This document shows positions 14,351-62,591 of a stretch of DNA of 64,000 nt, in pieces. Origin of the DNA: Eledone cirrhosa. Taxonomy: Eukaryota. The translations under genes and the position numbers were made by a program. Each line of letters opens with the position of its first letter. The first letter of the stretch is position 1. Location: NCBI GenBank assembly GCA_964016885.1, contig OZ024764.1, forward strand, positions 2,480,001 to 2,544,000, given 5' to 3'. The notes under the pieces were generated by a model. The model saw nothing but the letters and a program-made list of their open reading frames with translations. It was not told the DNA's origin and made no database searches.

Positions 14351-15098
14351 GGCGTTCCTTACTTTTAGCGGTCGCAAGAATTTAAGTAAATTTATTTTCA
14401 TTCGGACGTTCGGTCGTGTTTACATTTTGTTTGTGTGTTTAAAGGAAACATGCTGGCGACGAAGCTTCTTCTTTGCACGGCTCCATGTGTTCTCTATGAG
14501 CTGTGTGTGCACATCAAGGTCCGCAGGATCTACAAAGTTCCGTTCGTGCACCACAACATCATGAACGTAAATCCCACCTTCAATTTCCGAATAGGAAGCC
14601 CAACCGTCGGAGATGATGCGGCTGCCTGGCAAAATCCCTGCTGAATGATGGGGACGAGAGTGTCACGGCTTCGATTTGGGACTTCTACAAGGCAGCAGCG
14701 TCCAGAATGGCGTTCAACAGCGCCGAAGACCCAGTGGCCTTGTCTCCACAGGCCACGATGATACTTTCTATGGAAGTATTTGTATTCTTCTATCTCGACA
14801 ATGATGCACTCACCATTCTGCAAGCCTCATTACAAGATGGTTGGGCTTCCTATTCGGAAATTGAGGAAATTGAAGGTGGGATTTACGTTCATGATGTTGT
14901 GGTGCACGAACGGAACTTTGTAGATCCTGCGGACCCTGATGTGCACACACAGCTCATAGAGAACACATGGAGCCGTGCAAAGAAGAAGCTTCGTCGCCAG
15001 CATGTTTCGTTTAAACACACACGACCGAACGTCGTGTTTACATTTAAATGAAAATAAATTTACTTTCGTTCTTGCGACCGCTAAAAGTAAGGAACGCC
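14351..15098. mobile_element. Merlin (IS1595/ISXO2-like) DNA transposon, defective fold-back derivative
   Basis: TIR GGCGTTCCTTACTTTTAGCGGTCGCAAGAA at both ends; 9-bp TSD TTATACTTT/TTATAATTT. Transposase motifs VEIEE..RKYHRG..WVFGAVER, IISDGWASY, VVHERNFVDP..HTQLIENTWSRAK. Confidence 0.88.
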
Positions 15099-27093: not shown

Positions 27094-27202
27094 AACTGTG
27101 TGTCCAACTTACTAAAACTGTTTGATTTGACCTTAATTCTTATGTAAAACTTGCTTTTTTTTTCCTTTGCAGTAGAACCCGAGTCTCCACAGGCCATGAA
27201 AG

Positions 27203-28594
27203 ATGTTCTTACGACCCCCACACTTGTTACGCTCCACCCTCTGTTGGATACCCAAGTACACAACAACAACAACACTACAACAACTGGTCAGAGGGATTTC
27301 AACTAACCAGGAAGTATCTTTGACGGTGTGTCCAGAAAACGCATTGGTCGATGAACGACTGACCCTCTGTGTCGATGGTTTGAAGCCCAAAGAAAATGTG
27401 ACACTTTGTGCCACTCTGGAGCAGCACTCAAAGAAACGACAAACCATATTTGAGTCATTGGGTCATTTCAGGGCTTCACCCGATGGACGGATCAATCTGG
27501 CCACTGACCCTTGTTTATCAGGGACCTATACGGGTATCGACGCCATGGGGCTATTTTGGAGTATGAGACAGGTTGTCGGAAAATATGGGAGAGTTATTAC
27601 AAAAGATGCCACACAACCCTTGGATTGCACTGTAACGGTTTTCCAGGGTCATATATCCTCAGACCCGCAACATTCGCCATCTACAGCCGACTCTCCACAG
27701 CAGCCCTTGGTAACCAAACTGGTGAGACGTTGGTTTATGAAACCGGGGGTTGCTGGGGTACGGAGGATCCCAATCAACGACGGAAGACTGCGGGGTAGTT
27801 TGTTCATACCAGGTGGCAAGCCTCAACAACATCAACAATATCCCGCTGTGATAGACCTATTTGGCAGTGCTGGAGCCCTGATAGAGTCCCGAGGGGCTTT
27901 GTTGGCCTCCCATGGATTTGTTACCCTGAGTTTGGCCTATTTCTGTTACAAGGACTTACCCCTAGTCATAACAGATGTTGATTTTGAGTACTTCGAAGAA
28001 GCTGTCAAGTGGTTAGCTAACCACCCGCAAGTTTCTAGTGTGAATGGTATAGGTGTGTTAGGGACATCGTTAGGAGGTGTAATAGCTCTTTACATGGCCA
28101 AACAATGCCCTCAGGTAAGCGCAGTCATCAATATAAATGGTTTACCTGTGTTTTTTGTTTTACCAATCCGTCACAACGGCAAACCCATTCCGTACTGCTG
28201 CACGACGGAGTCTGGTAATATCACAGTACACGATGACGGGAGTATAGTGGCATTTTGGAAGCTGGACGAGTCAAAACAGTTTCTCTTGGACGAGACAAAC
28301 CGCTGTAAAATTCTTACTTTGATAAGCAGCGATGACCAAGTGCTCTACACCAGTGACTTCTACCTCTGGCTCGACAAGTTACCCCCATCCAAAAGACAAG
28401 ACATTCAGTACCTGGAATATGAGGGCGCTGGCCATCTACTTGAACCCCCCTACACCCCTCTCTTCCACTGTGTCCACTCTGCAATGTTTGGAGGCCCTAC
28501 CGTGTTTGGCGGCAAACCTCGACAACATGCTCTGGCCCAAGAAATGTCCTGGGCAAAGATAATTGAATTTTTCACTGAACAACTATTGAAATAG
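27203..28594 (+). CDS. Acyl-CoA thioesterase / bile acid-CoA:amino acid N-acyltransferase family protein (type I ACOT/BAAT), 463 aa, uninterrupted CDS
   Basis: GTYTGIDAMGLFWSM, GRLRGSLFIP, PAVIDLFG, GALLASHGFVTLSLAYF; catalytic Ser in GTSLG, Asp in SSDDQ, His in YEGAGHLLEPPY. In-frame TGA just upstream of the ATG; acceptor TTTGCAG at 27172. Confidence 0.95.
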   Translation: MFLRPPHLLRSTLCWIPKYTTTTTLQQLVRGISTNQEVSLTVCPENALVDERLTLCVDGLKPKENVTLCATLEQHSKKRQTIFESLGHFRASPDGRINLATDPCLSGTYTGIDAMGLFWSMRQVVGKYGRVITKDATQPLDCTVTVFQGHISSDPQHSPSTADSPQQPLVTKLVRRWFMKPGVAGVRRIPINDGRLRGSLFIPGGKPQQHQQYPAVIDLFGSAGALIESRGALLASHGFVTLSLAYFCYKDLPLVITDVDFEYFEEAVKWLANHPQVSSVNGIGVLGTSLGGVIALYMAKQCPQVSAVININGLPVFFVLPIRHNGKPIPYCCTTESGNITVHDDGSIVAFWKLDESKQFLLDETNRCKILTLISSDDQVLYTSDFYLWLDKLPPSKRQDIQYLEYEGAGHLLEPPYTPLFHCVHSAMFGGPTVFGGKPRQHALAQEMSWAKIIEFFTEQLLK

Positions 28595-36724: not shown

Positions 36725-39700
36725 TCTCTGAATTGAGAGACCACAGCTCTGATACTACAGACATGAGATTAGAATGTCTCAGGAAAGAATCTCTGGATTG
36801 ACAGATCATAGCTCTGATACTACAGACATGTGGTTAGAATGTCTGAGGAAAGAATCTCTGAATTGAGAGACCACAGCTCTGATACTACAGACATGAGATT
36901 AGAATGTCTCAGGAAAGAATCTCTGGATTGAGAGATCATAGCTCTGATACTACAGACATGTGGTTAGAATGTCTGAGGAAAGAATCTCTGAATTGAGAGA
37001 CCACAGCTCTGATACTACAGACATGTGGTTAGAATGTCACAGGAAAGAATCTCTGAATTGAGAGATCATAGCTCTGATACTACAGACATGTGGTTAGAAT
37101 GTCTGAGGAAAGAATCTCTGAATTGAGAGATCACAGCTCTGATACTACAGACATGTGGTTAGAATGTCTCAGGAAAGAATCTCTGAATTGAGAGATCACA
37201 GCTCTGATACTACAGACATGTGGTTAGAATGTCTGAGGAAAGAATCTCTGAATTGAGAGACCACAGCTCTGATACTACAGACATGTGGTTAGAATGTCTT
37301 AGGAAAGAATCTCTGAATTGAGAGATCATACTCTGACACTACAGACATGTGGTTAGAATGTCTCAGGAAAGAATCTCTGAATTGAGAGACCACAGCTCTG
37401 ATACTACAGACATGGGGTTAGAATGTCTCAGGAAAGAATCTCTGAATTGGGAGATCACAGCTCTGATACTACAGACATGTGGTCAGAATGTCTCAGGAAA
37501 GAATCTCTGGATTGAGAGACCACAGCTCTGATACTACAGACATGTGGTTAGAATGTCTCAGGAAAGAATCTCTGAATTGGGAGACCACAGCTCTGATACT
37601 ACAGACTTGTGGTTAGAATGTCTCAGGAAAGAATCTCTGAATTGGGAGACCACAGCTCTGATACTACAGACTTGTGGTTAGAATGTCTCAGGAAAGAATC
37701 TCTGAATTGGGAGACCACAGCTCTGATACTACAGACTTGTGGTTAGAATGTCTCAGGAAAGAATCTCTGAATTGGGAGACCACAGCTCTGATACTACAGA
37801 CTTGTGGTTAGAATGTCTCAGGAAAGAATCTCTGAATTGGGAGACCACAGCTCTGATACTACATACATGTGGTTAGAATGTCTCAGGAAAGAATCTCTGA
37901 ATTGGGAGACCACAGCTCTGATACTACAGACTTGTGGTTAGAATGTCTCAGGAAAGAATCTCTGAATTGGGAGACCACAGCTCTGATACTACAGACTTGT
38001 GGTTAGAATGTCTCAGGAAAGAATCTCTGAATTGGGAGACCACAGCTCTGATACTACAGACTTGTGGTTAGAATGTCTCAGGAAAGAATCTCTGAATTGG
38101 GAGACCACAGCTCTGATACTACAGACTTGTGGTTAGAATGTCTGAGGAAAGAATCTCTGAATTGGGAGACCACAGCTCTGATACTACAGACTTGTGGTTA
38201 GAATGTCTGAGGAAAGAATCTCTGAATTGGGAGACCACAGCTCTGATACTACAGACTTGTGGTTAGAATGTCTCAGGAAAGAATCTCTGAATTGGGAGAC
38301 CACAGCTCTGATACTACAGACATGTGGTTAGAATGTCTCAGGAAAGAATCTCTGAATTGGGAGACCACAGCTCTGATACTACAGACTTGTGGTTAGAATG
38401 TCTGAGGAAAGAATCTCTGAATTGGGAGACCACAGCTCTGATACTACAGACTTGTGGTTAGAATGTCTGAGGAAAGAATCTCTGAATTGGGAGACCACAG
38501 CTCTGATACTACAGACTTGTGGTTAGAATGTCTCAGGAAAGAATCTCTGAATTGGGAGACCACAGCTCTGATACTACAGACTTGTGGTTAGAATGTCTCA
38601 GGAAAGAATCTCTGAATTGGGAGACCACAGCTCTGATACTACAGACTTGTGGTTAGAATGTCTCAGGAAAGAATCTCTGAATTGGGAGACCACAGCTCTG
38701 ATACTACAGACTTGTGGTTAGAATGTCTCAGGAAAGAATCTCTGAATTGGGAGACCACAGCTCTGATACTACAGACTTGTGGTTAGAATGTCTCAGGAAA
38801 GAATCTCTGAATTGGGAGACCACAGCTCTGATACTACAGACTTGTGGTTAGAATGTCTCAGGAAAGAATCTCTGAATTGGGAGACCACAGCTCTGATACT
38901 ACAGACTTGTGGTTAGAATGTCTCAGGAAAGAATCTCTGAATTGGGAGACCACAGCTCTGATACTACAGACTTGTGGTTAGAATGTCTGAGGAAAGAATC
39001 TCTGAATTGGGAGACCACAGCTCTGATACTACAGACTTGTGGTTAGAATGTCTGAGGAAAGAATCTCTGAATTGGGAGACCACAGCTCTGATACTACAGA
39101 CTTGTGGTTAGAATGTCTGAGGAAAGAATCTCTGAATTGAGAGATCACAGCTCTGATAATACAGACATGTGGTTAGAATGTCTGAGGAAAGAATCTCTGA
39201 ATTGAGAGATCACAGCTCTGATACTACAGACATGTGGTTAGAATGTCTCAGGAAAGAATCTCTGAATTGAGAGACCACAGCCCTGATACTACAGATATGG
39301 GGTTAGAATGTCTCAGGAAAGAATCTCTGAATTGACAGATGACAGCTCTGATACTACAGACATGTGGGTAGAATGTCTGAGGAAAGAATCTCTGAATTGA
39401 GAGATCACAGCTCTGATAATACAGACATGTGGGTAGAATGTCTGAGGAAAGAATCTCTGAATTGAGAGATCACAGCTCTGATAACTACAGACATGTGGTT
39501 AGAATGACTCATGAAAGAATCTCTGAATTGAGAGACCACAGCTCTGATACTACAGACATGTGGTTAGAATGACTCATGAAAGAATCTCTGAATTGAGAGA
39601 CCACAGCTCTGATACTACAGACATGTGGTTAGAATGTCTCAGGAAAGAATCTCTGAATTGAGAGACCACAGCTCTGATACTACAGACATGAGGTTAGAAT

Positions 39701-42700
39701 GTCTCATGAAAGAATCTCTGAACTGAGAGACCACAGCTCTGATACTACAGACATGTGGTTAGAATGTCTCAGGAAAGAATCTCTGAATTGAGAGACCACA
39801 GCTCTGATACTACAGACTTGTGGTTAGAATGTCTGAGGAGAGAATCTCTGAATTGAGAGATCACAACTCTGATACTACAGACATGTGGTTAGAATGTCTC
39901 AGGAAAGAATCTCTGAATTGAGAGACCACAGCTCTGATACTACAGACATGTGGTTAGAATGTCTCAGGAAAGAATCTCTGAATTGAGAGATCACAGCTCT
40001 GATACTACAGACATGTGGTTAGAATGTCTCAGGAAAGAATCTCTGAATTGAGAGATCACAGCTCTGATACTACAGACATGTGGTTAGAATGTCTCAGGAA
40101 AGAATCTCTGAATTGAGAGATCACAGCTCTGATACTACAGACATGTGGTTAGAATGTCTCAGGAAAGAATCTCTGAATTGAGAGACCACAGCTCTGATAC
40201 TACAGACATGTGGTTAGAATGTCTCAGGAAAGAATCTCTGAATTGAGAGATCACAGCTCTGATACTACAGACATGTGGTTAGAATGTCTCAGGAAAGAAT
40301 CTCTGAATTGAGAGATCACAGCTCTGATACTACAGACATGTGGTTAGAATGTCTCAGGAAAGAATCTCTGAATTGAGAGATCACAGCTCTGATATTACAG
40401 ACATGTGGTTAGAATGTCTCAGGGAAGAACCTCTGAATTGAGAGATCACAGCTCTGATACTACAGACATGTGGTTAGAATATCTCAGGAAAGAATCTCTG
40501 AATTGAGAGATCACAGCTCTGATACTACAGACATGTGGTTAGAATGTCTGAGGAAAGAATCTCTGAATTGAGAGATCACAGCTCTGATACTACAGACATG
40601 TGGTTAGAATGTCTGAGGAAAGAATCTCTGAATTGAGAGATCACAGCTCTGATACTACAGACATGTGGTTAGAATGTCTCAGGAAAGAATCTCTGAATTG
40701 AGAGATCACAGCTCTGATATTACAGACATGTGGTTAGAATGTCTCAGGGAAGAACCTCTGAATTGAGAGATCACAGCTCTGATACTACAGACATGTGGTT
40801 AGAATATCTCAGGAAAGAATCTCTGAATTGAGAGATCACAGCTCTGATACTACAGACATGTGGTTAGAATGTCTCAGGAAAGAATCTCTGAATTGAGAGA
40901 CCACAGCTCTGATACTACAGACATGTGGTTAGAATGTCTGAGGAAAGAATCTCTGAATTGAGAGACCACAGCTCTGATACTACAGACATGTGGTTAGAAT
41001 GTCTCAGGAAAGAATCTCTGAATTGGGAGACCACAGCTCTGATACTACAGACTTGTGGTTAGAATGTCTGAGGAAAGAATCTCTGAATTGGGAGACCACA
41101 GCTCTGATACTACAGACTTGTGGTTAGAATGTCTGAGGAAAGAATCTCTGAATTGGGAGACCACAGCTCTGATACTACAGACTTGTGGTTAGAATGTCTC
41201 AGGAAAGAATCTCTGAATTGGGAGACCACAGCTCTGATACTACAGACTTGTGGTTAGAATGTCTCAGGAAAGAATCTCTGAATTGGGAGACCACAGCTCT
41301 GATACTACAGACTTGTGGTTAGAATGTCTCAGGAAAGAATCTCTGAATTGGGAGACCACAGCTCTGATACTACAGACTTGTGGTTAGAATGTCTCAGGAA
41401 AGAATCTCTGAATTGGGAGACCACAGCTCTGATACTACAGACTTGTGGTTAGAATGTCTCAGGAAAGAATCTCTGAATTGGGAGACCACAGCTCTGATAC
41501 TACAGACTTGTGGTTAGAATGTCTCAGGAAAGAATCTCTGAATTGGGAGACCACAGCTCTGATACTACAGACTTGTGGTTAGAATGTCTCAGGAAAGAAT
41601 CTCTGAATTGGGAGACCACAGCTCTGATACTACAGACTTGTGGTTAGAATGTCTCAGGAAAGAATCTCTGAATTGGGAGACCACAGCTCTGATACTACAG
41701 ACTTGTGGTTAGAATGTCTCAGGAAAGAATCTCTGAATTGGGAGACCACAGCTCTGATACTACAGACTTGTGGTTAGAATGTCTCAGGAAAGAATCTCTG
41801 AATTGGGAGACCACAGCTCTGATACTACAGACTTGTGGTTAGAATGTCTCAGGAAAGAATCTCTGAATTGGGAGACCACAGCTCTGATACTACAGACTTG
41901 TGGTTAGAATGTCTGAGGAAAGAATCTCTGAATTGGGAGACCACAGCTCTGATACTACAGACTTGTGGTTAGAATGTCTGAGGAAAGAATCTCTGAATTG
42001 GGAGACCACAGCTCTGATACTACAGACTTGTGGTTAGAATGTCTGAGGAAAGAATCTCTGAATTGAGAGATCACAGCTCTGATAATACAGACATGTGGTT
42101 AGAATGTCTGAGGAAAGAATCTCTGAATTGAGAGATCACAGCTCTGATACTACAGACATGTGGTTAGAATGTCTCAGGAAAGAATCTCTGAATTGAGAGA
42201 CCACAGCCCTGATACTACAGATATGGGGTTAGAATGTCTCAGGAAAGAATCTCTGAATTGACAGATGACAGCTCTGATACTACAGACATGTGGGTAGAAT
42301 GTCTGAGGAAAGAATCTCTGAATTGAGAGATCACAGCTCTGATAATACAGACATGTGGGTAGAATGTCTGAGGAAAGAATCTCTGAATTGAGAGATCACA
42401 GCTCTGATAACTACAGACATGTGGTTAGAATGACTCATGAAAGAATCTCTGAATTGAGAGACCACAGCTCTGATACTACAGACATGTGGTTAGAATGACT
42501 CATGAAAGAATCTCTGAATTGAGAGACCACAGCTCTGATACTACAGACATGAAGTTAGAATGTCTCATGAAAGAATCTCTGAACTGAGAGACCACAGCTC
42601 TGATACTACAGACATGTGGTTAGAATGTCTCAGGAAAGAATCTCTGAATTGAGAGACCACAGCTCTGATACTACAGACTTGTGGTTAGAATGTCTGAGGA

Positions 42701-44268
42701 GAGAATCTCTGAATTGAGAGATCACAACTCTGATACTACAGACATGTGGTTAGAATGTCTCAGGAAAGAATCTCTGAATTGAGAGACCACAGCTCTGATA
42801 CTACAGACATGTGGTTAGAATGTCTCAGGAAAGAATCTCTGAATTGAGAGATCACAGCTCTGATACTACAGACATGTGGTTAGAATGTCTCAGGAAAGAA
42901 TCTCTGAATTGAGAGATCACAGCTCTGATACTACAGACATGTGGTTAGAATGTCTCAGGAAAGAATCTCTGAATTGAGAGATCACAGCTCTGATACTACA
43001 GACATGTGGTTAGAATGTCTCAGGAAAGAATCTCTGAATTGAGAGACCACAGCTCTGATACTACAGACATGTGGTTAGAATGTCTCAGGAAAGAATCTCT
43101 GAATTGAGAGATCACAGCTCTGATACTACAGACATGTGGTTAGAATGTCTCAGGAAAGAATCTCTGAATTGAGAGATCACAGCTCTGATACTACAGACAT
43201 GTGGTTAGAATGTCTCAGGAAAGAATCTCTGAATTGAGAGATCACAGCTCTGATATTACAGACATGTGGTTAGAATGTCTCAGGGAAGAACCTCTGAATT
43301 GAGAGATCACAGCTCTGATACTACAGACATGTGGTTAGAATATCTCAGGAAAGAATCTCTGAATTGAGAGATCACAGCTCTGATACTACAGACATGTGGT
43401 TAGAATGTCTGAGGAAAGAATCTCTGAATTGAGAGATCACAGCTCTGATACTACAGACATGTGGTTAGAATGTCTGAGGAAAGAATCTCTGAATTGAGAG
43501 ATCACAGCTCTGATACTACAGACATGTGGTTAGAATGTCTCAGGAAAGAATCTCTGAATTGAGAGATCACAGCTCTGATATTACAGACATGTGGTTAGAA
43601 TGTCTCAGGGAAGAACCTCTGAATTGAGAGATCACAGCTCTGATACTACAGACATGTGGTTAGAATGTCTCAGGAAAGAATCTCTGAACTGAGAGATCAC
43701 AGCTCTGATACTACAGACATGAGGTTAGAATGTCTGAGGAAAGAATCTCTGAATTGAGAGATCACAGCTCTGATACTACAGACATGTGGTTAGAATGTCT
43801 CAGGAAAGAACCTCTGTATTGAGAGATCACAGCTCTGATATTACAGACATGTGGTTAGAATGTCTCAGGGAAGAACCTCTGAATTGAGAGATCACAGCTC
43901 TGATACTACAGACATGTGGTTAGAATGTCTCAGGGAAGAACCTCTGAATTGAGAGATCACAGCTCTGATACTACAGACATGTGGTTAGAATGTCTCAGGG
44001 AAGAACCTCTGAATTGAGAGATCACTGCTCTGATACTACAGACATGTGGTTAGAATATCTCAGGAAAGAATCTCTGAATTGAGAGATCACAGCTCTGATA
44101 CTACAGACATGTGGTTAGAATGTCTCAGGAAAGAATCTCTGAATTGAGAGACCACAGCTCTGATACTACAGACATGTGGTTAGAATGTCTCAGGAAAGAA
44201 TCTCTGAATTGAGAGATCACAGCTCTGATACTACAGACATGTGGTTAGAATGTCTCAGGAAAGAATCT
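36725..44268. repeat. 65-bp satellite array, about 116 copies, with higher-order duplication
   Basis: Unit GAATGTCTCAGGAAAGAATCTCTGAATTGAGAGACCACAGCTCTGATACTACAGACATGTGGTTA. Confidence 0.97.
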
Positions 44269-44531
44269 GGACAGATTTTGTAGGCGAAAAGAACAGGTAG
44301 GAGAACCCGGGTGGGTCATGCTTGCAGATCCAGCCAGATCAGTTGGGGACGGTTGCTTCTGACAGGAATAAGTGGTCGAAGTAAGAAGGAGGTTTTTATA
44401 CATCTCACATCTGACGAGCCCAAGTTATCGGAAATGGTAGGATGAACAATCTAGACGTGGTCCTCGGTGAAATGTGTATCACAGAGATATAAATAAACCT
44501 AAACTACAACTGCATATGGCTTCTGATCTTT

Positions 44532-47500
44532 TAACCCTTTAGCATTTAATCTGGCCATATCTGACCAGAGTTCTCTCATTTCTTTCTGTTCAAACTGGCT
44601 GTAACTGGCAGCTCATCATGTGAAGGTATTGTTCTCAAAATATTTAATATCAAAATCTCATCGATTTGATATTACGTGAGATAAAGCCTTTACTGTGACA
44701 ATACAGTAGTATATATAGAGTAATGTAAATGTTATGTGAGATATTATGTGAGGTAAAGCCTTTACTGTGACAATACAATAGTATATATAGAGTAATGTAA
44801 ATGTTATGTGAGATATTATGTGAGGTAAAGCCTTTACTGTGACAATACAATAGTATATATAGAGTAATGTAAATGTTATGTGAGATATTATGTGAGGTAA
44901 AGCCTCTACTGTGAAAATACAATAGTATATATAGAGTAATGTAAATATTATGTGAGGTAAAGCCTTTACTGTGACAATACAATAGTATATATAGAGTAAT
45001 GTAAATGTTATGTGAGATATTATGTGAGGTAAAGCCTTTACTGTGAAAATACAATAGTATATATAGAGTAATGTAAATGTTATGTGAGATATTATGTGAG
45101 GTAAAGCCTTTACTGTGAAAATACAATAGTATATATAGAGTAATGTAGATGTTATGTGAGATATTATGTGAGGTAAAGCCTTTACTGTGAAAATACAATA
45201 GTATATATAGAGTAATGTAGATGTTATGTGAGATATTATGTGCGGTAAAGCCTTTACTGTGAAAATACAATAGTATATATAGAGTAATGTAGATGTTATG
45301 TGAGATATTATGTGCGGTAAAGCCTTTACTGTGAAAATACAATAGTATATATAGAGTAATGTAAATGTTATGTGAGATATTATGTGAGGTAAAGCCTTTA
45401 CTGTGAAAATACAATAGTATATATAGAGTAATGTAAATGTTATGTGAGATATTATGTGAGGTAAAGCCTATACTGTGAAAATACAATAGTATATATAGAG
45501 TAATGTAAATGTTATGTGAGATATTATGTGAGGTAAAGCCTTTACTGTGAAAATACAATAGTATATATAGAGTAATGTAAATATTATGTGAGGTAAAGCC
45601 TTTACTGTGACAATACAATAGTATATATAGAGTAATGTAGATGTTATGTGAGATATTATGTGCGGTAAAGCCTTTACTGTGAAAATACAATAGTATATAT
45701 AGAGTAATGTAAATGTTATGTGAGATATTATGTGAGGTAAAGCCTTTACTGTGACAATACAATAGTATATATAGAGTAATGTAAATGTTATGTGAGATAT
45801 TATGTGAGGTAAAGCCTATACTGTGAAAATACAATAGTATATATAGAGTAATGTAAATGTTATGTGAGATATTATGTGAGGTAAAGCCTTTACTGTGACA
45901 ATACAATAGTATATATAGAGTAATGTAAATGTTTTGGGAGATATTATGTGAGGTAAAGACTTTACTGTGAAAATACAATAGTATATATAGAGTAATGTAA
46001 ATGTTATGTGAGATATTATGTGAGGTAAAGCCTTTACTGTGAAAATACAATAGTATATATAGAGTAATGTAAATGTTATGTGAGATATTATGTGAGGTAA
46101 AGCCTTTACTGTGACAATACAATAGTATATATAGAGTAATGTAAATGTTATGTGAGATATTATGTGAGGTAAAGACTTTACTGTGACAATACAATAGTAT
46201 ATATAGAGTAATGTAAATGTTATGTGAGATATTATGTGAGGTTAAGCCTTTACTGTGACAATACAATAGTATATATAGAGTAATGTAAATGTTATGTGAG
46301 ATATTATGTGAGGTAAAGCCTTTACTGTGAAAATACAATAGTATATATAGAGTAATGTAAATGTTATGTGAGATATTATGTGAGGTAAAGCCTTTACTGT
46401 GAAAATACAATAGTATATATAGAGTAATGTAAATGTTATGTGAGATATTATGTGAGGTAAAGCCTTTACTGTGAAAATACAATAGTATATATAGAGTAAT
46501 GTAGATGTTATGTGAGATATTATGTGAGGTGAAGCCTTTACTGTGAAAATACAATAGTATATATAGAGTAATGTAAATGTTATGTGAGATATTATGTGAG
46601 GTAAAGCCTTTACTGTGACAATACAATAGTATATATAGAGTAATGTAAATGTTATGTGAGATATTATGTGAGGTAAAGCCTATACTGTGAAAATACAATA
46701 GTATATATAGAGTAATGTAAATGTTATGTGAGATATTATGTGAGGTAAAGCCTTTACTGTGACAATACAATAGTATATATAGAGTAATGTAAATGTTTTG
46801 GGAGATATTATGTGAGGTAAAGACTTTACTGTGAAAATACAATAGTATATATAGAGTAATGTAAATGTTATGTGAGATATTATGTGAGGTAAAGCCTTTA
46901 CTGTGAAAATACAATAGTATATATAGAGTAATGTAAATGTTATGTGAGATATTATGTGAGGTAAAGCCTTTACTGTGACAATACAATAGTATATATAGAG
47001 TAATGTAAATGTTACGTGAGATATTATGTGAGGTAAAGCCTTTACTGTGAAAATACAATAGTATATATAGAGTAATGTAAATGTTATGTGAGATATTATG
47101 TGAGGTAAAGCCTTTACTGTGACAATACAATAGTATATATAGAGTAATGTAATTGTTATGTGAGATATTATGTGAGATAAAGCTTTTACTGTGAAAATAC
47201 AATAGTATATGTAGAGTAATGTAAATGTTATGTGAGATATTATGTGAGGTAAAGCCTTTACTGTGACAATACAATAGTATATATAGAGTAATGTAGATGT
47301 TATGTGAGATATTATGTGCGGTAAAGCCTTTACTGTGAAAATACAATAGTATATATAGAGTAATGTAAATGTTATGTGAGATATTATGTGAGGTAAAGCC
47401 TTTACTGTGAAAATACAATAGTATATATAGAGTAATGTAGATGTTATGTGAGATATTATGTGAGGTGAAGCCTTTACTGTGAAAATACAATAGTATATAT

Positions 47501-49160
47501 AGAGTAATGTAAATGTTATGTGAGATATTATGTGAGGTAAAGCCTTTACTGTGACAATACAATAGTATATATAGAGTAATGTAAATGTTATGTGAGATAT
47601 TATGTGAGGTAAAGCCTATACTGTGAAAATACAATAGTATATATAGAGTAATGTAAATGTTATGTGAGATATTATGTGAGGTAAAGCCTTTACTGTGACA
47701 ATACAATAGTATATATAGAGTAATGTAAATGTTTTGGGAGATATTATGTGAGGTAAAGACTTTACTGTGAAAATACAATAGTATATATAGAGTAATGTAA
47801 ATGTTATGTGAGATATTATGTGAGGTAAAGCCTTTACTGTGAAAATACAATAGTATATATAGAGTAATGTAAATGTTATGTGAGATATTATGTGAGGTAA
47901 AGCCTTTACTGTGACAATACAATAGTATATATAGAGTAATGTAAATGTTACGTGAGATATTATGTGAGGTAAAGCCTTTACTGTGAAAATACAATAGTAT
48001 ATATAGAGTAATGTAAATGTTATGTGAGATATTATGTGAGGTAAAGCCTTTACTGTGACAATACAATAGTATATATAGAGTAATGTAATTGTTATGTGAG
48101 ATATTATGTGAGATAAAGCTTTTACTGTGAAAATACAATAGTATATGTAGAGTAATGTAAATGTTATGTGAGATATTATGTGAGGTAAAGCCTTTACTGT
48201 GACAATACAATAGTATATATAGAGTAATGTAGATGTTATGTGAGATATTATGTGCGGTAAAGCCTTTACTGTGAAAATACAATAGTATATATAGAGTAAT
48301 GTAAATGTTATGTGAGATATTATGTGAGGTAAAGCCTTTACTGTGAAAATACATTAGTATATATAGAGTAATGTAAATGTTATGTGAGATATTATGTGAG
48401 GTAAATCCTTTACCGTGAAAATACAATAGTATATATAGAGTAATGTAAATGTTATGTGAGATATTATGTGAGGTAAAGCCTTTACTGTGAAAATACAATA
48501 GTATATATAGAGTAATGTAAATGTTATGTGAGATATTATGTGAGGTAAAGCCTTTACTGTGAAAATACAATAGTATATATAGAGTAATGTAAATGTTATG
48601 TGAGATATTATGTGAGGTAAAGCCTTTACTGTGACAATACAATAGTATATATAGAGTAATGTAAATGGTATGTGAGATATTATGTGAGGTAAAGCCTTTA
48701 CTGTGAAAATACAATAGTATATATAGAGTAATGTAAATGTTATGTGAGGTATTATGTGAAGTAAAGCCTTTACTGTGAAAATACAATAGTATATATAGAG
48801 TAATGTAAATGTTATGTGAGATATTATGTGAGGTAAAGCCTTTACTGTGAACATACAATAGTATATATAGAGTAATGTAAATGTTATGTGAGATATTATG
48901 GGAGGTAAAGCCTTTACTGTGAACATACAATAGTATATATAGAGTAATGTAAATGTTATGTGAGGTAAAGCCTTTACTGTGAACATACAATAGTATATAT
49001 AGAGTAATGTAAATGTTATGTGAGGTATTATGTGAGGTAAAGCCTTTACTGTGAACATACAATAGTATATATAGAGTAATGTAAATGTTATGTGAGATAT
49101 TATGGGAGGTAAAGCCTTTACTGTGACAATACAATAGTATATATAGAGTAATGTAAATGT
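44532..49160 (+). mobile_element. piggyBac-like MITE left end followed by about 63 units of the 72-bp satellite
   Basis: TTAA-CCCTTTAGCATTTA terminus, ~140-bp leader, then the array from ~44670 to 49160. Confidence 0.8.
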
Positions 49161-49527
49161 AATGTTCCGTACCATTTATACATTTTGTTGAGTGCTTCAT
49201 TTTATCTGCATTACAGCCAACTGACTAAAATACGGTTTGTACATCCCTGCTTGGTTTGGCCCTTATTTTAATAATAATAATTGTTTCTACTTTTGGCACA
49301 AGGCCAGCAATTACCCCAGTGTATTACTGCTACTTTATATTATCGACCCCGTAAGGATGAAAGGCAAAGTTAACCTCGGCGGGATTTGATAATAAAATAT
49401 ATATTTTATTAAATATATATATATATATACACACACACACATATATATATATGCATATATATGTATAGATATATATATAGATATATATATACATATATAT
49501 GCATATATATGTATACATATATATATA

Positions 49528-50526: not shown

Positions 50527-50575
<49 letters not shown>

Positions 50576-51235
50576 CACATATATATGTATACACATATAT
50601 ATATATGTATACATATATATATATGCATATCAATGTATACATATATATATAAATATATATATGTATACATATATATATTTATATATACATATACATATGT
50701 AAGTATATATATGTATGAATATATATATATGAATATATATATATGTATATATATATTACACATGACTAACCCATGCCAGCGTGGATAAATGGACGTAAAA
50801 TGATGATGATGACACATATACATACATACATATATATATATATACATACATATATACACATACATATATACATACACACATACACACATATGTATATATA
50901 TATATACACACACATTCATATATATATATATGCATACATATACATACATACATATATATACATACACATATATATATATACATATATACACATATATATA
51001 TATATATATGCATGGATATATACACACACACATATATGTACATACATAGATATATACACTTATATATATACACACACACACACACATATATATATATACA
51101 CACATATATATACATATATATACATACATATATACACATATATACATACATTTATACACATATATATATACACACATATATATATATATATATATACATA
51201 CATATATATACATATATATATATACATATACACAA

Positions 51236-51306
<71 letters not shown>

Positions 51307-51309
51307 CAT

Positions 51310-51350
<41 letters not shown>

Positions 51351-51757
51351 TACACTTATATATATACACACACACATATATATATATATATACATATACA
51401 CACACACATATATATATACATTTATACACATATATATCATCATCATCATCATTTTACATCTGCTTTTCCCTGCTTGCAAGGGTGGGACGGGAAATGATTC
51501 TGGCTTGATTTCTACAGCTGGATACCCTTCCTAACACCAACCTCATTTACAGTGAGTGCTGGCTGCTTTTTTTTATATATACATACATATATATATATAT
51601 ATATACATATACACAAATATATATATATATACATATATACACATATATATACATACTTACATACTCATATATATATATATACATATATACACACATATAT
51701 ACACACATATGTATATACATACATATATATGCACATACATATATACATACATATATA

Positions 51758-51799
<42 letters not shown>

Positions 51800-51874
51800 T
51801 ATATACATATATACACACATATATACATACATATATATATACACATACATATATATATATATGCATATATATAT

Positions 51875-51914
<40 letters not shown>

Positions 51915-51990
51915 GTACATACAGATATACACATATATATATATACATACATATATATATATATATACATACATATACACACATATATAC
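50527..51990. repeat. (TA)n/(CA)n tract with SINE-tail fragments
   Basis: Direct reading; SINE 1 tail at ~51438-51570. Confidence 0.92.
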
Positions 51991-52002
51991 ATTCATACGT
52001 TC

Positions 52003-52927
52003 GTTCACTGAGGTATATCTATAAACATGCATTTTCACTGAGGCGTGAAAGTTTTACTCTCGTCACTGGTTCCAGCCATTAGACTCTGGCCATGCTACAG
52101 CACCAATCGTTATATTTTTAAAATATTTATTTATTCAAAATGTTGAGGCTGTGACAGAAAGTCCTGTAATGTTCACTGGAGCATGAGATCTAGTTACTTA
52201 GGTATTGACCAATTCAAGCGTGACAACAGCAATGTGGGTGCAGGTGACTTTGTTTCTTTGCCATGTCACTGAAGCGTGACTAGTAGTAGTACTGTTTACT
52301 GAGCAATGACAGCTATGATGTGAGTTCACTGTGGCGTGATGGAGTTGCGATCAACGAAGCATGACACTTGTGATTTCTGTTGTAAATACATTATTCACTG
52401 AAGTATGATGCCTTCTTGTCATTTCTGTTGGAAGTGGTGAGTATTTTAGTGGACCATGACAGCAATGTGTTCGCTGTTGCGTGACACAGGAAGTGGTGGT
52501 GGTGTATTCAGTGGAGTGTTATAGAGTGTGTCCAGTGAGCCATGGCATTAAGCAGATCTGATTTCCATTCAAGGTAGTGTGTTCAGTGATGCATGAACTA
52601 AAACAGCAGTGAGTTCACTATAAGTAATGGAGTGTTCGATGGAGCATGGCGGTAGTGTGCCCAATGGCGCATGGCACACATGGTTTTTGTTGGAAGCAGT
52701 ATAAATCAGTGATGCATGACAGCAGTAAGTTGTTGTGTTCAATGAACCGTGATTGATTTGCACAGGATTTCCATTGGATGTGGTGTGTCCAGTGATGCAT
52801 GACAGTGTGTTGACCTTGTGTAGTGATGTGTTCAGCGGAGCATGACAGAATAATGTTGAATGTGGTGTGACTGTAACTTTTCTGTGTTCACTGAAGCATG
52901 ACAGCAGTATGTCCAATGAAGCATGTC
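52003..52927 (+). promoter_or_regulatory. Homotypic cluster of about 20 co-oriented motifs GTTCANTGRAGCRTGACA resembling Pax paired-domain sites
   Basis: Examples: TGTCACTGAAGCGTGAC (52264), TTTCACTGAGGCGTGAA (52033), GTTCACTGGAGCATGAG (52171), GTTCAGTGATGCATGAA (52581), GTTCACTGAAGCATGACA (52886). Spacers are unrelated to each other. Function is inferred. Confidence 0.5.
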
Positions 52928-53274
52928 TCTTGTGATATATGATTTCTGTGTTGGTTTGTAGGAAGTTTTGTGGGTGTTTTAATGTTAGGGACCCCAGTTC
53001 TATAATGTTACAGCTGACACCTATGTAGGTTTAGCTGGCCTCCTACAAGGTTGTATCTAATAGGAGGTTTCTTGGGTGTTTTAATGATAGGGCCCCCAGT
53101 CTGATGTTGTTAGGTTTAGCTGGCCTCCTACAAGGTTGTATCACAAAGGAGGCTTCTTGTGTGTTATAACGATAGGGTTCCCAATCCTATCATGTTGCTG
53201 TTGATATACCTCACACCTAAATAGGTTTAGCTGGTCTCCCACAAGCCTCATATCACAGGAAGTTTGGGTGTTTT

Positions 53275-53550
53275 CACCCTTTAGCATTTAAATCGCCATA
53301 TCTGGCCAGAATTTTTTCACCTCTTTCTGTTCAAACCGGCTGTAAAAAACTGTTCATACTGATGTTAAGGTATTGTTCTCAAAGTAAATAATATCAAAAT
53401 CTCATAGATTCAATATTATGTGAGGTAAAGCCTTTACTGTGAAAATACAATAGTATATATAGCGTAATGTAAATGTTATGTGAGGTATTATGTGGGATAA
53501 AGCCTTTACTGTGAAAATATAATACAATTGTATATATAATGTAAATGCTA
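53275..53550 (+). mobile_element. Short piggyBac-like MITE copy with about 2 satellite units
   Basis: CACCCTTTAGCATTTA end, same leader as 44533, two 72-bp-type units ending TAAATGCTA. Confidence 0.72.
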
Positions 53551-53815
53551 TGTGAAGTGAAGTGTCTTGTTCAAGAACACAATGCATCACCTTGTCGGTG
53601 AATCTAACTTCCAAAACCTTATGATGATGGGTTCAACAGTCCTACTCTACCGACAGGCTCCCACATCTTTACCAGATGAAGGGACACAGCTTCACAAGGT
53701 AGGTAGGGTATGAAGAGAGAACGAGTCTAAAAATGCTACCACTGAGGTCAGAAGGGGTCAGAGGTCAGGATGTGAGAGGCGAGATGAAAAAAAAAAAACT
53801 ATTTCAACGGGAAAG

Positions 53816-53944
53816 CTATAGCTTCTTATCCAGGAGCACGTATCCTTCTCTGTCCTTTATGCGTACGTGGCCGTTGGCGAACTTTGTCTCCTGGCGGCCA
53901 TCGGGGAAGATAGTCTTACGGGTGCCATCAGGGTACTCTCGTCT
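53816..53944 (-). CDS. CENPJ: Centromere protein J (CPAP/SAS-4), terminal exon
   Basis: RREYPDGTRKTIFPDGRQETKFANGHVRIKDREGYVLLDKKL*; acceptor CTCCCAG; matches the Tcp10/G-box C-terminus. Confidence 0.93.
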   Translation of the reverse strand, partial: RREYPDGTRKTIFPDGRQETKFANGHVRIKDREGYVLLDKKL

Positions 53945-54087
53945 CTGGGAGGAAGAAAAAGACAGAAAATTAGAGGAAAATATATAAAATATATTTTTGA
54001 TATTTTGCTTTTTTTCACCGTAATATAAGACAGAATATTTCTTTTTCTTTGGTTGTGTCAACTGCACAACACCCTCTCTAGCATTCT

Positions 54088-55059: not shown

Positions 55060-55255
55060 CTTAAAGCGGTCAGTGTGTATTTCTCGTTGACCGTTGGGGA
55101 AGATCAAAGTCCGTACCCCATTAACCTCCACCTTAATCACCGTTCCATCCAGGCAATGGCTTTCCTCTGATCCATCTTCATGGAGGTACTTGATTGTTTG
55201 GTCAGGGAACGTGATCTCTTGGCTGCCATTAGGGAAATGTTTCTCTACTTGGCCC
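55060..55255 (-). CDS. CENPJ: CENPJ exon (Tcp10 domain)
   Basis: GQVEKHFPNGSQEITFPDQTIKYLHEDGSEESHCLDGTVIKVEVNGVRTLIFPNGQREIHTDRFK; TTTAG/GTAGGT; phases consistent. Confidence 0.94.
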
Positions 55256-61555: not shown

Positions 61556-62413
61556 TACGAGGTGTGTTAGAAAAGTGCCAGGACTGATGTCACAAAAGAT
61601 TTATTTGAAACCCAAACTTCACACTAAGAGTTTTCTCCTTCAAAGTAATCCCCCTGGAGTCTAATGCACTTTTCCATCCATTTCTGCCATGCTTGCATGC
61701 ACTGCTGGAAGGATTCTTCCCCGATACTCCGCAGTTCCGTCGTCACGGCCTTTTTGATGTCGTCCATGTCTTCAAAACGGGTCCCCTCCGGTTCGTACTC
61801 GAAGATCCATGACTCATCACCGGTGATGACTGTCCCTAGCAAGTCTGGTTCGGTTTCAAGACGCTCGAGGATGTCCTGGCACACTTGCAAGCGTCGACCC
61901 TTCTGGCCATCGTTCAGCAGTTTTGGCACCATCTTCGTGCAGACTTTCCGCATGTCCAAATCTTCAGTGAGAATCTTCCAGACACTGTCCCGATTCATGC
62001 CCAGCTCATTTGCCATCAGTCGAAGTCAGCCGACGATCGCTACGCACCATCTGCCTGACGCGCTCAACGTTGACCTCAGTCCTTGTTGTTGAGGGCCTTC
62101 CGCTCCTGGGGTCATCTTGCACCACTCAAAAACACGTGAGCGTGACATCGTCTCATCTCCATACACTTGCTGCACCAATCTCAGTGCTTCTGACGGAGTT
62201 TTCCCCAACCGTACCAGAAACTTCAAGTTTGTTCGTTGCTCTGTGCTCATTGCTTGACGACCTGGAACAGAGGACATGTATATAAAATTATGAAGAAAAA
62301 AGTTTGATCGCTGCAGAGAGCCAAGATTACAGTTACATACTCCAGGGGGATTTCTTCGAAGGAGAAAACTCTTAGTTTGGGTTTGAAATAAATCTTTTCT
62401 GACACACCTCGTA
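61556..62413 (-). mobile_element. Tc1/mariner transposon, internally deleted
   Basis: Termini TACGAGGTGTGTTAGAAAAG / CTTTTCTGACACACCTCGTA in TA context; EQRTNLKFLVRLGKT, MSRSRVFEW, KMVPKLL, VITGDESW, and C-terminal CIRLQGDYFE. Confidence 0.92.
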
Positions 62414-62591
62414 TATTTAACACTAAATTATCAACAACAATATACCGTATTTGCTGGCCTATTGGACGCCCCTTCGTATAAGACTCTCCCTCTTTTTTTA
62501 TTATATTTTACGTTATATTTTGACATTTATAGGCATTTTTATGGACCACATCCAATACTAGCAGTTTTTTCACTCTTTGCAGGTGTTCTAG

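Follow-up and report, generated by a model that had tools for sequence, protein, structure and literature searches.

The question raised by this locus is whether a dense run of Pax-like motifs, lying between an AT-rich microsatellite and the last coding exon of CENPJ, is a regulatory platform kept by selection or the decayed remains of a tandem repeat. On balance we lean, without great assurance, toward the latter, an old decayed minisatellite with a Pax-like unit. The motif array itself is real. A previous reading of the window (the whole stretch of 64,000 nucleotides analyzed here), made from the sequence only, had listed 21 occurrences of a bipartite motif, and all 21 positions hold it, 20 of them with four or fewer mismatches to the consensus proposed in that reading; the copy placed at 52207 is present on the plus strand, but starts one base later, at 52208, and has five mismatches. 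Two weaker copies, at 52003 and 52855, can be added to the list (Table 1), and an extra broken copy lies near 52613, the sole one among 13 spacers tested. The single orientation and fixed internal spacing claimed for the motif were borne out, in that every copy is on the plus strand and ungapped, even though the spacers differ in length. In the window as a whole, all 14 matches with three or fewer mismatches to the proposed consensus fall inside the array, as do 20 of the 28 with four or fewer, all on the plus strand. The array copies are about 24% diverged from the array majority sequence, and the array was not reported by TRF.

Table 1. Features of the array, its surroundings and related loci (window positions, except those prefixed by G000 or C)
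Feature	Position	Strand	Basis or remark
18-nt motif array, 23 ungapped copies	52003..52928	+	consensus mismatch scan and spacer alignment
Motif starts, copies 1-12	52003, 52033, 52171, 52208, 52264, 52294, 52324, 52349, 52393, 52444, 52469, 52506	+	
Motif starts, copies 13-23	52530, 52581, 52634, 52659, 52704, 52737, 52787, 52830, 52855, 52886, 52911	+	
Two-class spacer region (6-7 nt class; related 26-33 nt class)	52342..52959	+	
Dispersed-repeat fragment between motif copies 2 and 3	52052..52120		16 short matches elsewhere
AT-rich microsatellite bounding the array	50527..51989		TRF
Tandem piece of a dispersed repeat, three to four copies of 85-110 nt	52959..53267		
Very high-copy dispersed element with two copies of a 72-bp unit	53268..53555		
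Two overlapping AATAAA on the CENPJ sense strand, candidate polyadenylation signal	52126..52135	-	use putative
CENPJ/CPAP last coding exon, 42 codons plus stop	53816..53944	-	Pfam Tcp10_C
CENPJ/CPAP preceding exon, upstream limit approximate	55060..55239	-	CPAP structures, E=1e-22
Duplicated block, window copy	51970..53593		about 93% identical to C5 copy
Duplicated block, C5 copy	G000:C5:67188836-67190530	-	
Young minisatellites elsewhere	C10:11.94 Mb (27 bp); C12:41.93 Mb (44 bp); C12:7.94 Mb (25 bp); C4:319.37 Mb (36 bp); C3:318.96 Mb; C3:371.52 Mb		

How good is the likeness to a Pax site? Fit was scored as mismatches to published consensus strings (as a merged string). P6CON, a Pax paired-domain consensus, was taken from PMC2612750, and the Pax2/5/8 core, AAGCGTGAC, from PMC3403905; none of the strings used here comes from the passages searched in PMC4330359, PMC2760872, PMC5737492, PMC4538810, PMC4488758, PMC2192461 or PMC8616915. 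The array matches P6CON, read as its reverse complement, in register and has the same bipartite layout and spacing as a Pax site. Within one, two and three mismatches of the merged string there are 5, 10 and 15 sites, where the rate in 243 kb of other sequence would predict 0.004, 0.02 and 0.18. The resemblance to Pax2/5/8 sites put forward at the outset thus stands. The agreement is incomplete, however, as most copies have 3-6 mismatches to P6CON. The array majority departs from that string at two columns: 15 of 23 copies have A at column 13, a position occupied by G in both published strings, and column 17 is C, as in the Pax2/5/8 core, in 16 of 23 copies and the A of P6CON in 2. Paired-domain exons were found at no fewer than five loci in the genome, none of them on C25, and the Pax2/5/8 exon on C4 is identical to human PAX5 (1k78_A) at 55 of 56 residues, so that the same DNA preference would be expected; a paired domain of the Pax2/5/8 type would probably recognize the best copies of the array in vitro. 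The Pax families of cephalopods and their expression are described in PMC5333810, and a literature search, mostly of openly readable papers, turned up no cephalopod array of Pax sites. Some 420 kb upstream of the Pax2/5/8 gene is an isolated exact motif (C4:119397896), noticed post hoc, whose position may be chance.

The spacers, held by the sequence-only reading to be unique, proved to be related to one another. They fall into short and long classes: among the 13 spacers of at least 15 nt, 8 of 78 pairs align at p<0.02, where 1.6 would be expected (significance being drawn from single-base shuffles); five of the spacers share a length of 7 nt and are 51% identical among themselves; and six long spacers (26-33 nt) have a stretch in common, with a gapped identity of 64% versus 58% when shuffled, a weak excess. 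Because the spacers form related classes, the array would have grown by tandem duplication, and their pattern points to a basic unit of 25 nt, alongside a larger one of about 75 nt that holds two motifs. The head-to-tail units are related beyond the motif, as in a degenerate minisatellite, with the likeness among the long spacers being weak. A uniformly decayed tandem repeat had been named beforehand as an observation that would tell against a binding platform, and this is in part what we see, in that the spacers do align as a decayed repeat. We propose that a 25-base unit was duplicated in tandem to give a minisatellite that has since decayed, that growth may have proceeded by unequal duplication of one-motif and two-motif blocks, that a dispersed repeat probably inserted later at 52052-52120 (a segment over which depth is raised in sequencing runs X1, X2 and X4), and that the match of the unit to a Pax paired-domain site probably arose by chance.

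The way in which the copies have decayed is uneven, and it can be read with or without selection. Column conservation correlates with the information content of P6CON (r=0.45; by permutation, p=0.036 with 17 columns, 0.014 with 18 and 0.016 with 20), which is one signal that favors selection. Column 6, unspecified in P6CON, is among the most variable (A6 C9 G7 T1), and its neighboring columns are 91% fixed. In neutral simulations, run without indels and without a CpG effect, a single burst followed by uniform decay never yielded columns so uneven (0 of 400 runs), a half-and-half growth model was borderline, with 3% of runs matching, and continuous growth by duplication reached this unevenness in 30% of runs and the joint pattern of a three-allele column and fixed columns in 11%. 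Decay free of selection thus reaches the observed pattern under continuous growth and never under a single burst. The lack of gaps in the motif copies, set beside the variable spacer lengths and the single broken copy, also speaks against plain decay. Among the 14 copies on the right-hand side, conservation was 0.64 in the best 18-nt segment and 0.47 in the other 7 nt, an excess of motif over spacer that was equaled in 7.6%, 25% and 39% of neutral runs, depending on the growth model. By a clock of JC 0.065 at 18 My, a calibration made for another assembly and quoted in PMC13282606, a divergence of 24% from the majority sequence would correspond to about 70-80 My if neutral. The array would then be tens of millions of years old.

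A block that includes the array is also found on C5, where it lacks the CENPJ exon. A repeat that is cut off at the C5 boundary runs on in the window (as judged by eye), and the window copy is therefore likely the parent. The 5% difference between the two copies would represent about 7 My by the same borrowed clock. Changes between them number 9 of 181 positions in the motif core (5.0%), 8 of 224 in the other motif columns, 23 of 504 in spacers (4.6%) and 36 of 656 in the flanks (5.5%). Motifs were thus no better conserved than spacers over this interval, a result that the sequence-only reading had said would weigh against its proposal, although the comparison of core with spacer (Fisher p=0.84) has low power and half of its branch is probably neutral; with about four changes expected per branch under neutrality, the test is blind to partial constraint. 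When core changes were polarized by the array majority sequence, the C5 copy was found to have six core substitutions and two motif-breaking deletions and the window copy three core substitutions moving away from the consensus, so that 8 of the 11 core-damaging changes are in the orphan copy (p=0.11). Each copy has 10 Pax-like sites with two or fewer mismatches. A paired-domain exon that we take to be eyegone-like (C5:67699447-67699584) is about 510 kb away from the orphan copy, a proximity noticed post hoc that may be chance.

To judge the array against its genome, we scanned the 3.0-Gb genome with a two-core Pax pattern. Of the 168 matches, the 100 that were listed fall at 14 loci on C1-C13, one of which is the C5 copy, leaving at least 13 others; a control pattern in which the half-sites were exchanged matched 73 times, at 13 loci genome-wide, 9 of them on C1-C13. 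Two-core repeats are therefore about as common on C1-C13 with the Pax core (at least 13 loci) as with a scrambled one (9 loci). A stricter pattern gave 44 matches, which consist of the array, its C5 copy, two young minisatellites and, on C4, a duplication of two sites. No old degenerate cluster was found among the 13 other two-core loci listed or the two new loci of the stricter pattern, and several of the other two-core loci examined are young, uniform minisatellites. Arrays of Pax-like units thus arise repeatedly, and among the matches listed the window array is the lone old one: the young minisatellites share its head-to-tail units and its core but are near-uniform, whereas the window array is about 24% diverged and was missed by TRF. 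One of the repeats, at C10:11943339-11943974 (L075-L097), consists of 24 copies of a 27-bp unit with a full-length Pax-like 17-mer in two alternating variants; at C4:205.19 Mb (L065:3287-3335), an AT-rich and otherwise unique sequence holds two near-perfect sites, 31 bp apart. Exact 17-mers elsewhere occur at eight isolated loci, as single sites in all eight and not as clusters, which is mildly high against about three by hand estimate; an exact-17-mer control gave one match, a figure biased by the forced CG, and a spacing-shifted control gave none, with a pattern too long to inform.

The place of the array relative to CENPJ bears on what it might do. CENPJ is on the minus strand with its stop codon at 53816-53818, as had been claimed. 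Four sequencing runs from one study and one organism label (X1-X4), none recorded as RNA, contain the array. X1, X2 and X4 come from a single sample, possibly the one that was assembled, and their identity to the window copy is therefore uninformative on polymorphism. X3, whose kind is not recorded, comprises 88 million letters of contigs that give neither strand nor transcript ends. A 2,411-nt record in X3 that covers 53490-53946 departs from the genomic sequence exactly at the acceptor of the last exon (two bases are shared beyond the exon start at 53944), whereas X1 and X2 continue past the acceptor into the intron. We infer that the X3 record is a spliced mRNA, although X3 also has some intron cover and the upstream exon lies outside the compared stretch. 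A second X3 record matches 52147-53043 letter for letter, and the C5 letters that were listed are all absent from X3, whereas X1, X2 and X4 hold both copies. No X3 contig spans 53043-53490 or joins the exon to the array, but some bins are uncovered and holes prove nothing. Since this spliced-RNA-like run holds the window copy only, the array is likely within the CENPJ 3' UTR.

The sequence-only reading had coupled that location, which we thus regard as likely, with a second proposal, that the array is a repeated RNA element, and a structured element of this kind found no support. Such an element, offering sites for a protein or a small RNA, would be in keeping with the X3 contigs at the splice acceptor and over the array and with the AATAAA near the far end of the array, but two array copies lie beyond that signal, the minus strand (the only one folded) shows no excess of folding (z=0.40), and an Rfam scan of the array gave microsatellite noise or matches far below cut-off. 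Moreover, the variable columns 6, 9 and 10 would sit in any miRNA seed, and a bipartite 17-mer of fixed spacing would better suit a DNA-binding domain; we consider an RNA element unlikely. Still less probable, to the point of being nearly dismissible, is that the motifs are the sub-terminal transposase-binding repeats of a Tc1/mariner-like element. Transposases of that group carry paired-like domains, and the duplicated block has moved once; against this, all sites are co-oriented, and the block, of which only two full-length copies were found (a lower bound), begins inside another repeat and ends in a microsatellite, which is not the picture of a multi-copy element. Readings of the array as an iron-responsive element, a miRNA seed, a nuclear-receptor inverted repeat or a CENP-B box were dropped on inspection of the letters alone. 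A coding reading was rejected as well: a 153-codon minus-strand frame (52569-53030) contains several in-frame motif copies, but the spacer lengths are not divisible by three, and 6 of 7 indels relative to the C5 copy break the frame.

The surroundings are rich in repeats of their own. The 72-bp unit of the dispersed element beside the array also forms an array at 45000-49165, and the sequences at 53268-53555 and 44530-49165 represent an element with TTAA-CCC-type ends, presumably piggyBac-like, within which the 72-bp unit has grown into long arrays. Tandem copies of a roughly 60-bp unit fill the 7.5 kb from 36740 to 44270. There are two transposase remnants, at 14617-15051 and 61624-62427: respectively a weak ISXO2/Merlin match below cut-off and what we assume to be a mariner-like piece. 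Facing CENPJ, on the plus strand at 27200-28594, is an uninterrupted 464-codon frame with both BAAT/acyl-CoA thioesterase domains.

Where the unit came from is a separate question, and a possible though rather doubtful source is the antisense strand of an abundant LINE, from which the unit would have been taken and then amplified; this origin is compatible with either a minisatellite or a selected cluster. The LINE encodes a reverse transcriptase (Pfam RVT_1) and is, we presume, RTE-like; its M-L-H-W codons, read antisense, would supply the Pax-like core. Three young arrays (L032, L038 and L098/L102) are tandem copies of exactly this LINE segment, and the sequence after the motif at 52349 resembles the continuation of the LINE arrays (p=0.003, or 0.07 after 23 tests). 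On the other hand, a profile of nine LINE segments finds nothing in the array, eight motif-independent LINE copies give a best p of 0.02 uncorrected, the bases preceding the motif fail to match the LINE, and two further loci (L044 and L045) align only because a pattern derived from the array selected them. At L032:1450-1730, L038:1500-1800 and L098-L102, the antisense of the LINE segment yields a Pax-like 12-base core, and the family may spread such cores widely. Just outside the window, an 80-bp tandem array at L018:7180-9165 derives from another piece of this LINE family.

The alternative that deserves most weight is a homotypic cluster of Pax2/5/8-class sites, born by duplication but kept by selection as an enhancer or a sink in the CENPJ 3' end, in which single sites would be free to turn over; we regard it as tentative. 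Clusters of sites for one transcription factor occur in enhancers, and the array likewise holds many sites for one factor, densely packed in less than 1 kb. In favor of the cluster, the majority base is an allowed one at 14 of 15 specified columns, with C allowed at column 17, columns 12-13 are CA or CG in 18 of 23 copies and TG in 2 (the copies not being independent), conservation follows the consensus (p 0.014-0.036), the genome encodes a cognate Pax2/5/8 protein, 8 of the 11 damaging changes fall in the orphan copy, and all 44 matches to the stricter pattern include no second old degenerate cluster. Set against it are the equal rates of change in motifs and spacers between the two copies, the sufficiency of neutral models, the abundance of chance Pax-like arrays in the genome, the retention of the CG of the published core in just 6 of 23 copies, and the neighboring genes, CENPJ and an acyl-CoA thioesterase gene, with no obvious developmental target adjoining. 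Unlike homotypic enhancer clusters, moreover, the sites are co-oriented, descend from one unit and show no constraint between the two copies. A more elaborate version, which we hold a shade more tentatively still, is that a repeat, perhaps seeded by the antisense of a LINE, was amplified in the CENPJ 3' end and later retained by selection as a 20-site Pax2/5/8 landing pad (enhancer or sink); the young Pax-unit minisatellites would then be earlier stages of the same process and the orphan copy a built-in control. We return to the old, decayed minisatellite with a Pax-like unit as the reading that we prefer.

Pax sites borne by tandem repeats have a counterpart in the mouse, whose major satellite repeats reportedly carry Pax3/Pax9 sites with shown binding; those repeats are megabase pericentric arrays, whereas the window array spans 0.9 kb, exists in two copies, lies at the end of a gene and has predicted sites. 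If the array is neutral, then a decayed minisatellite in a repeat-rich genome can mimic a dense enhancer, which calls for caution in motif scans. If it is selected, then it would be a compact and testable platform for a developmental regulator, born from a tandem repeat in a cephalopod, and the 93%-identical orphan copy and the younger arrays would offer the comparison.
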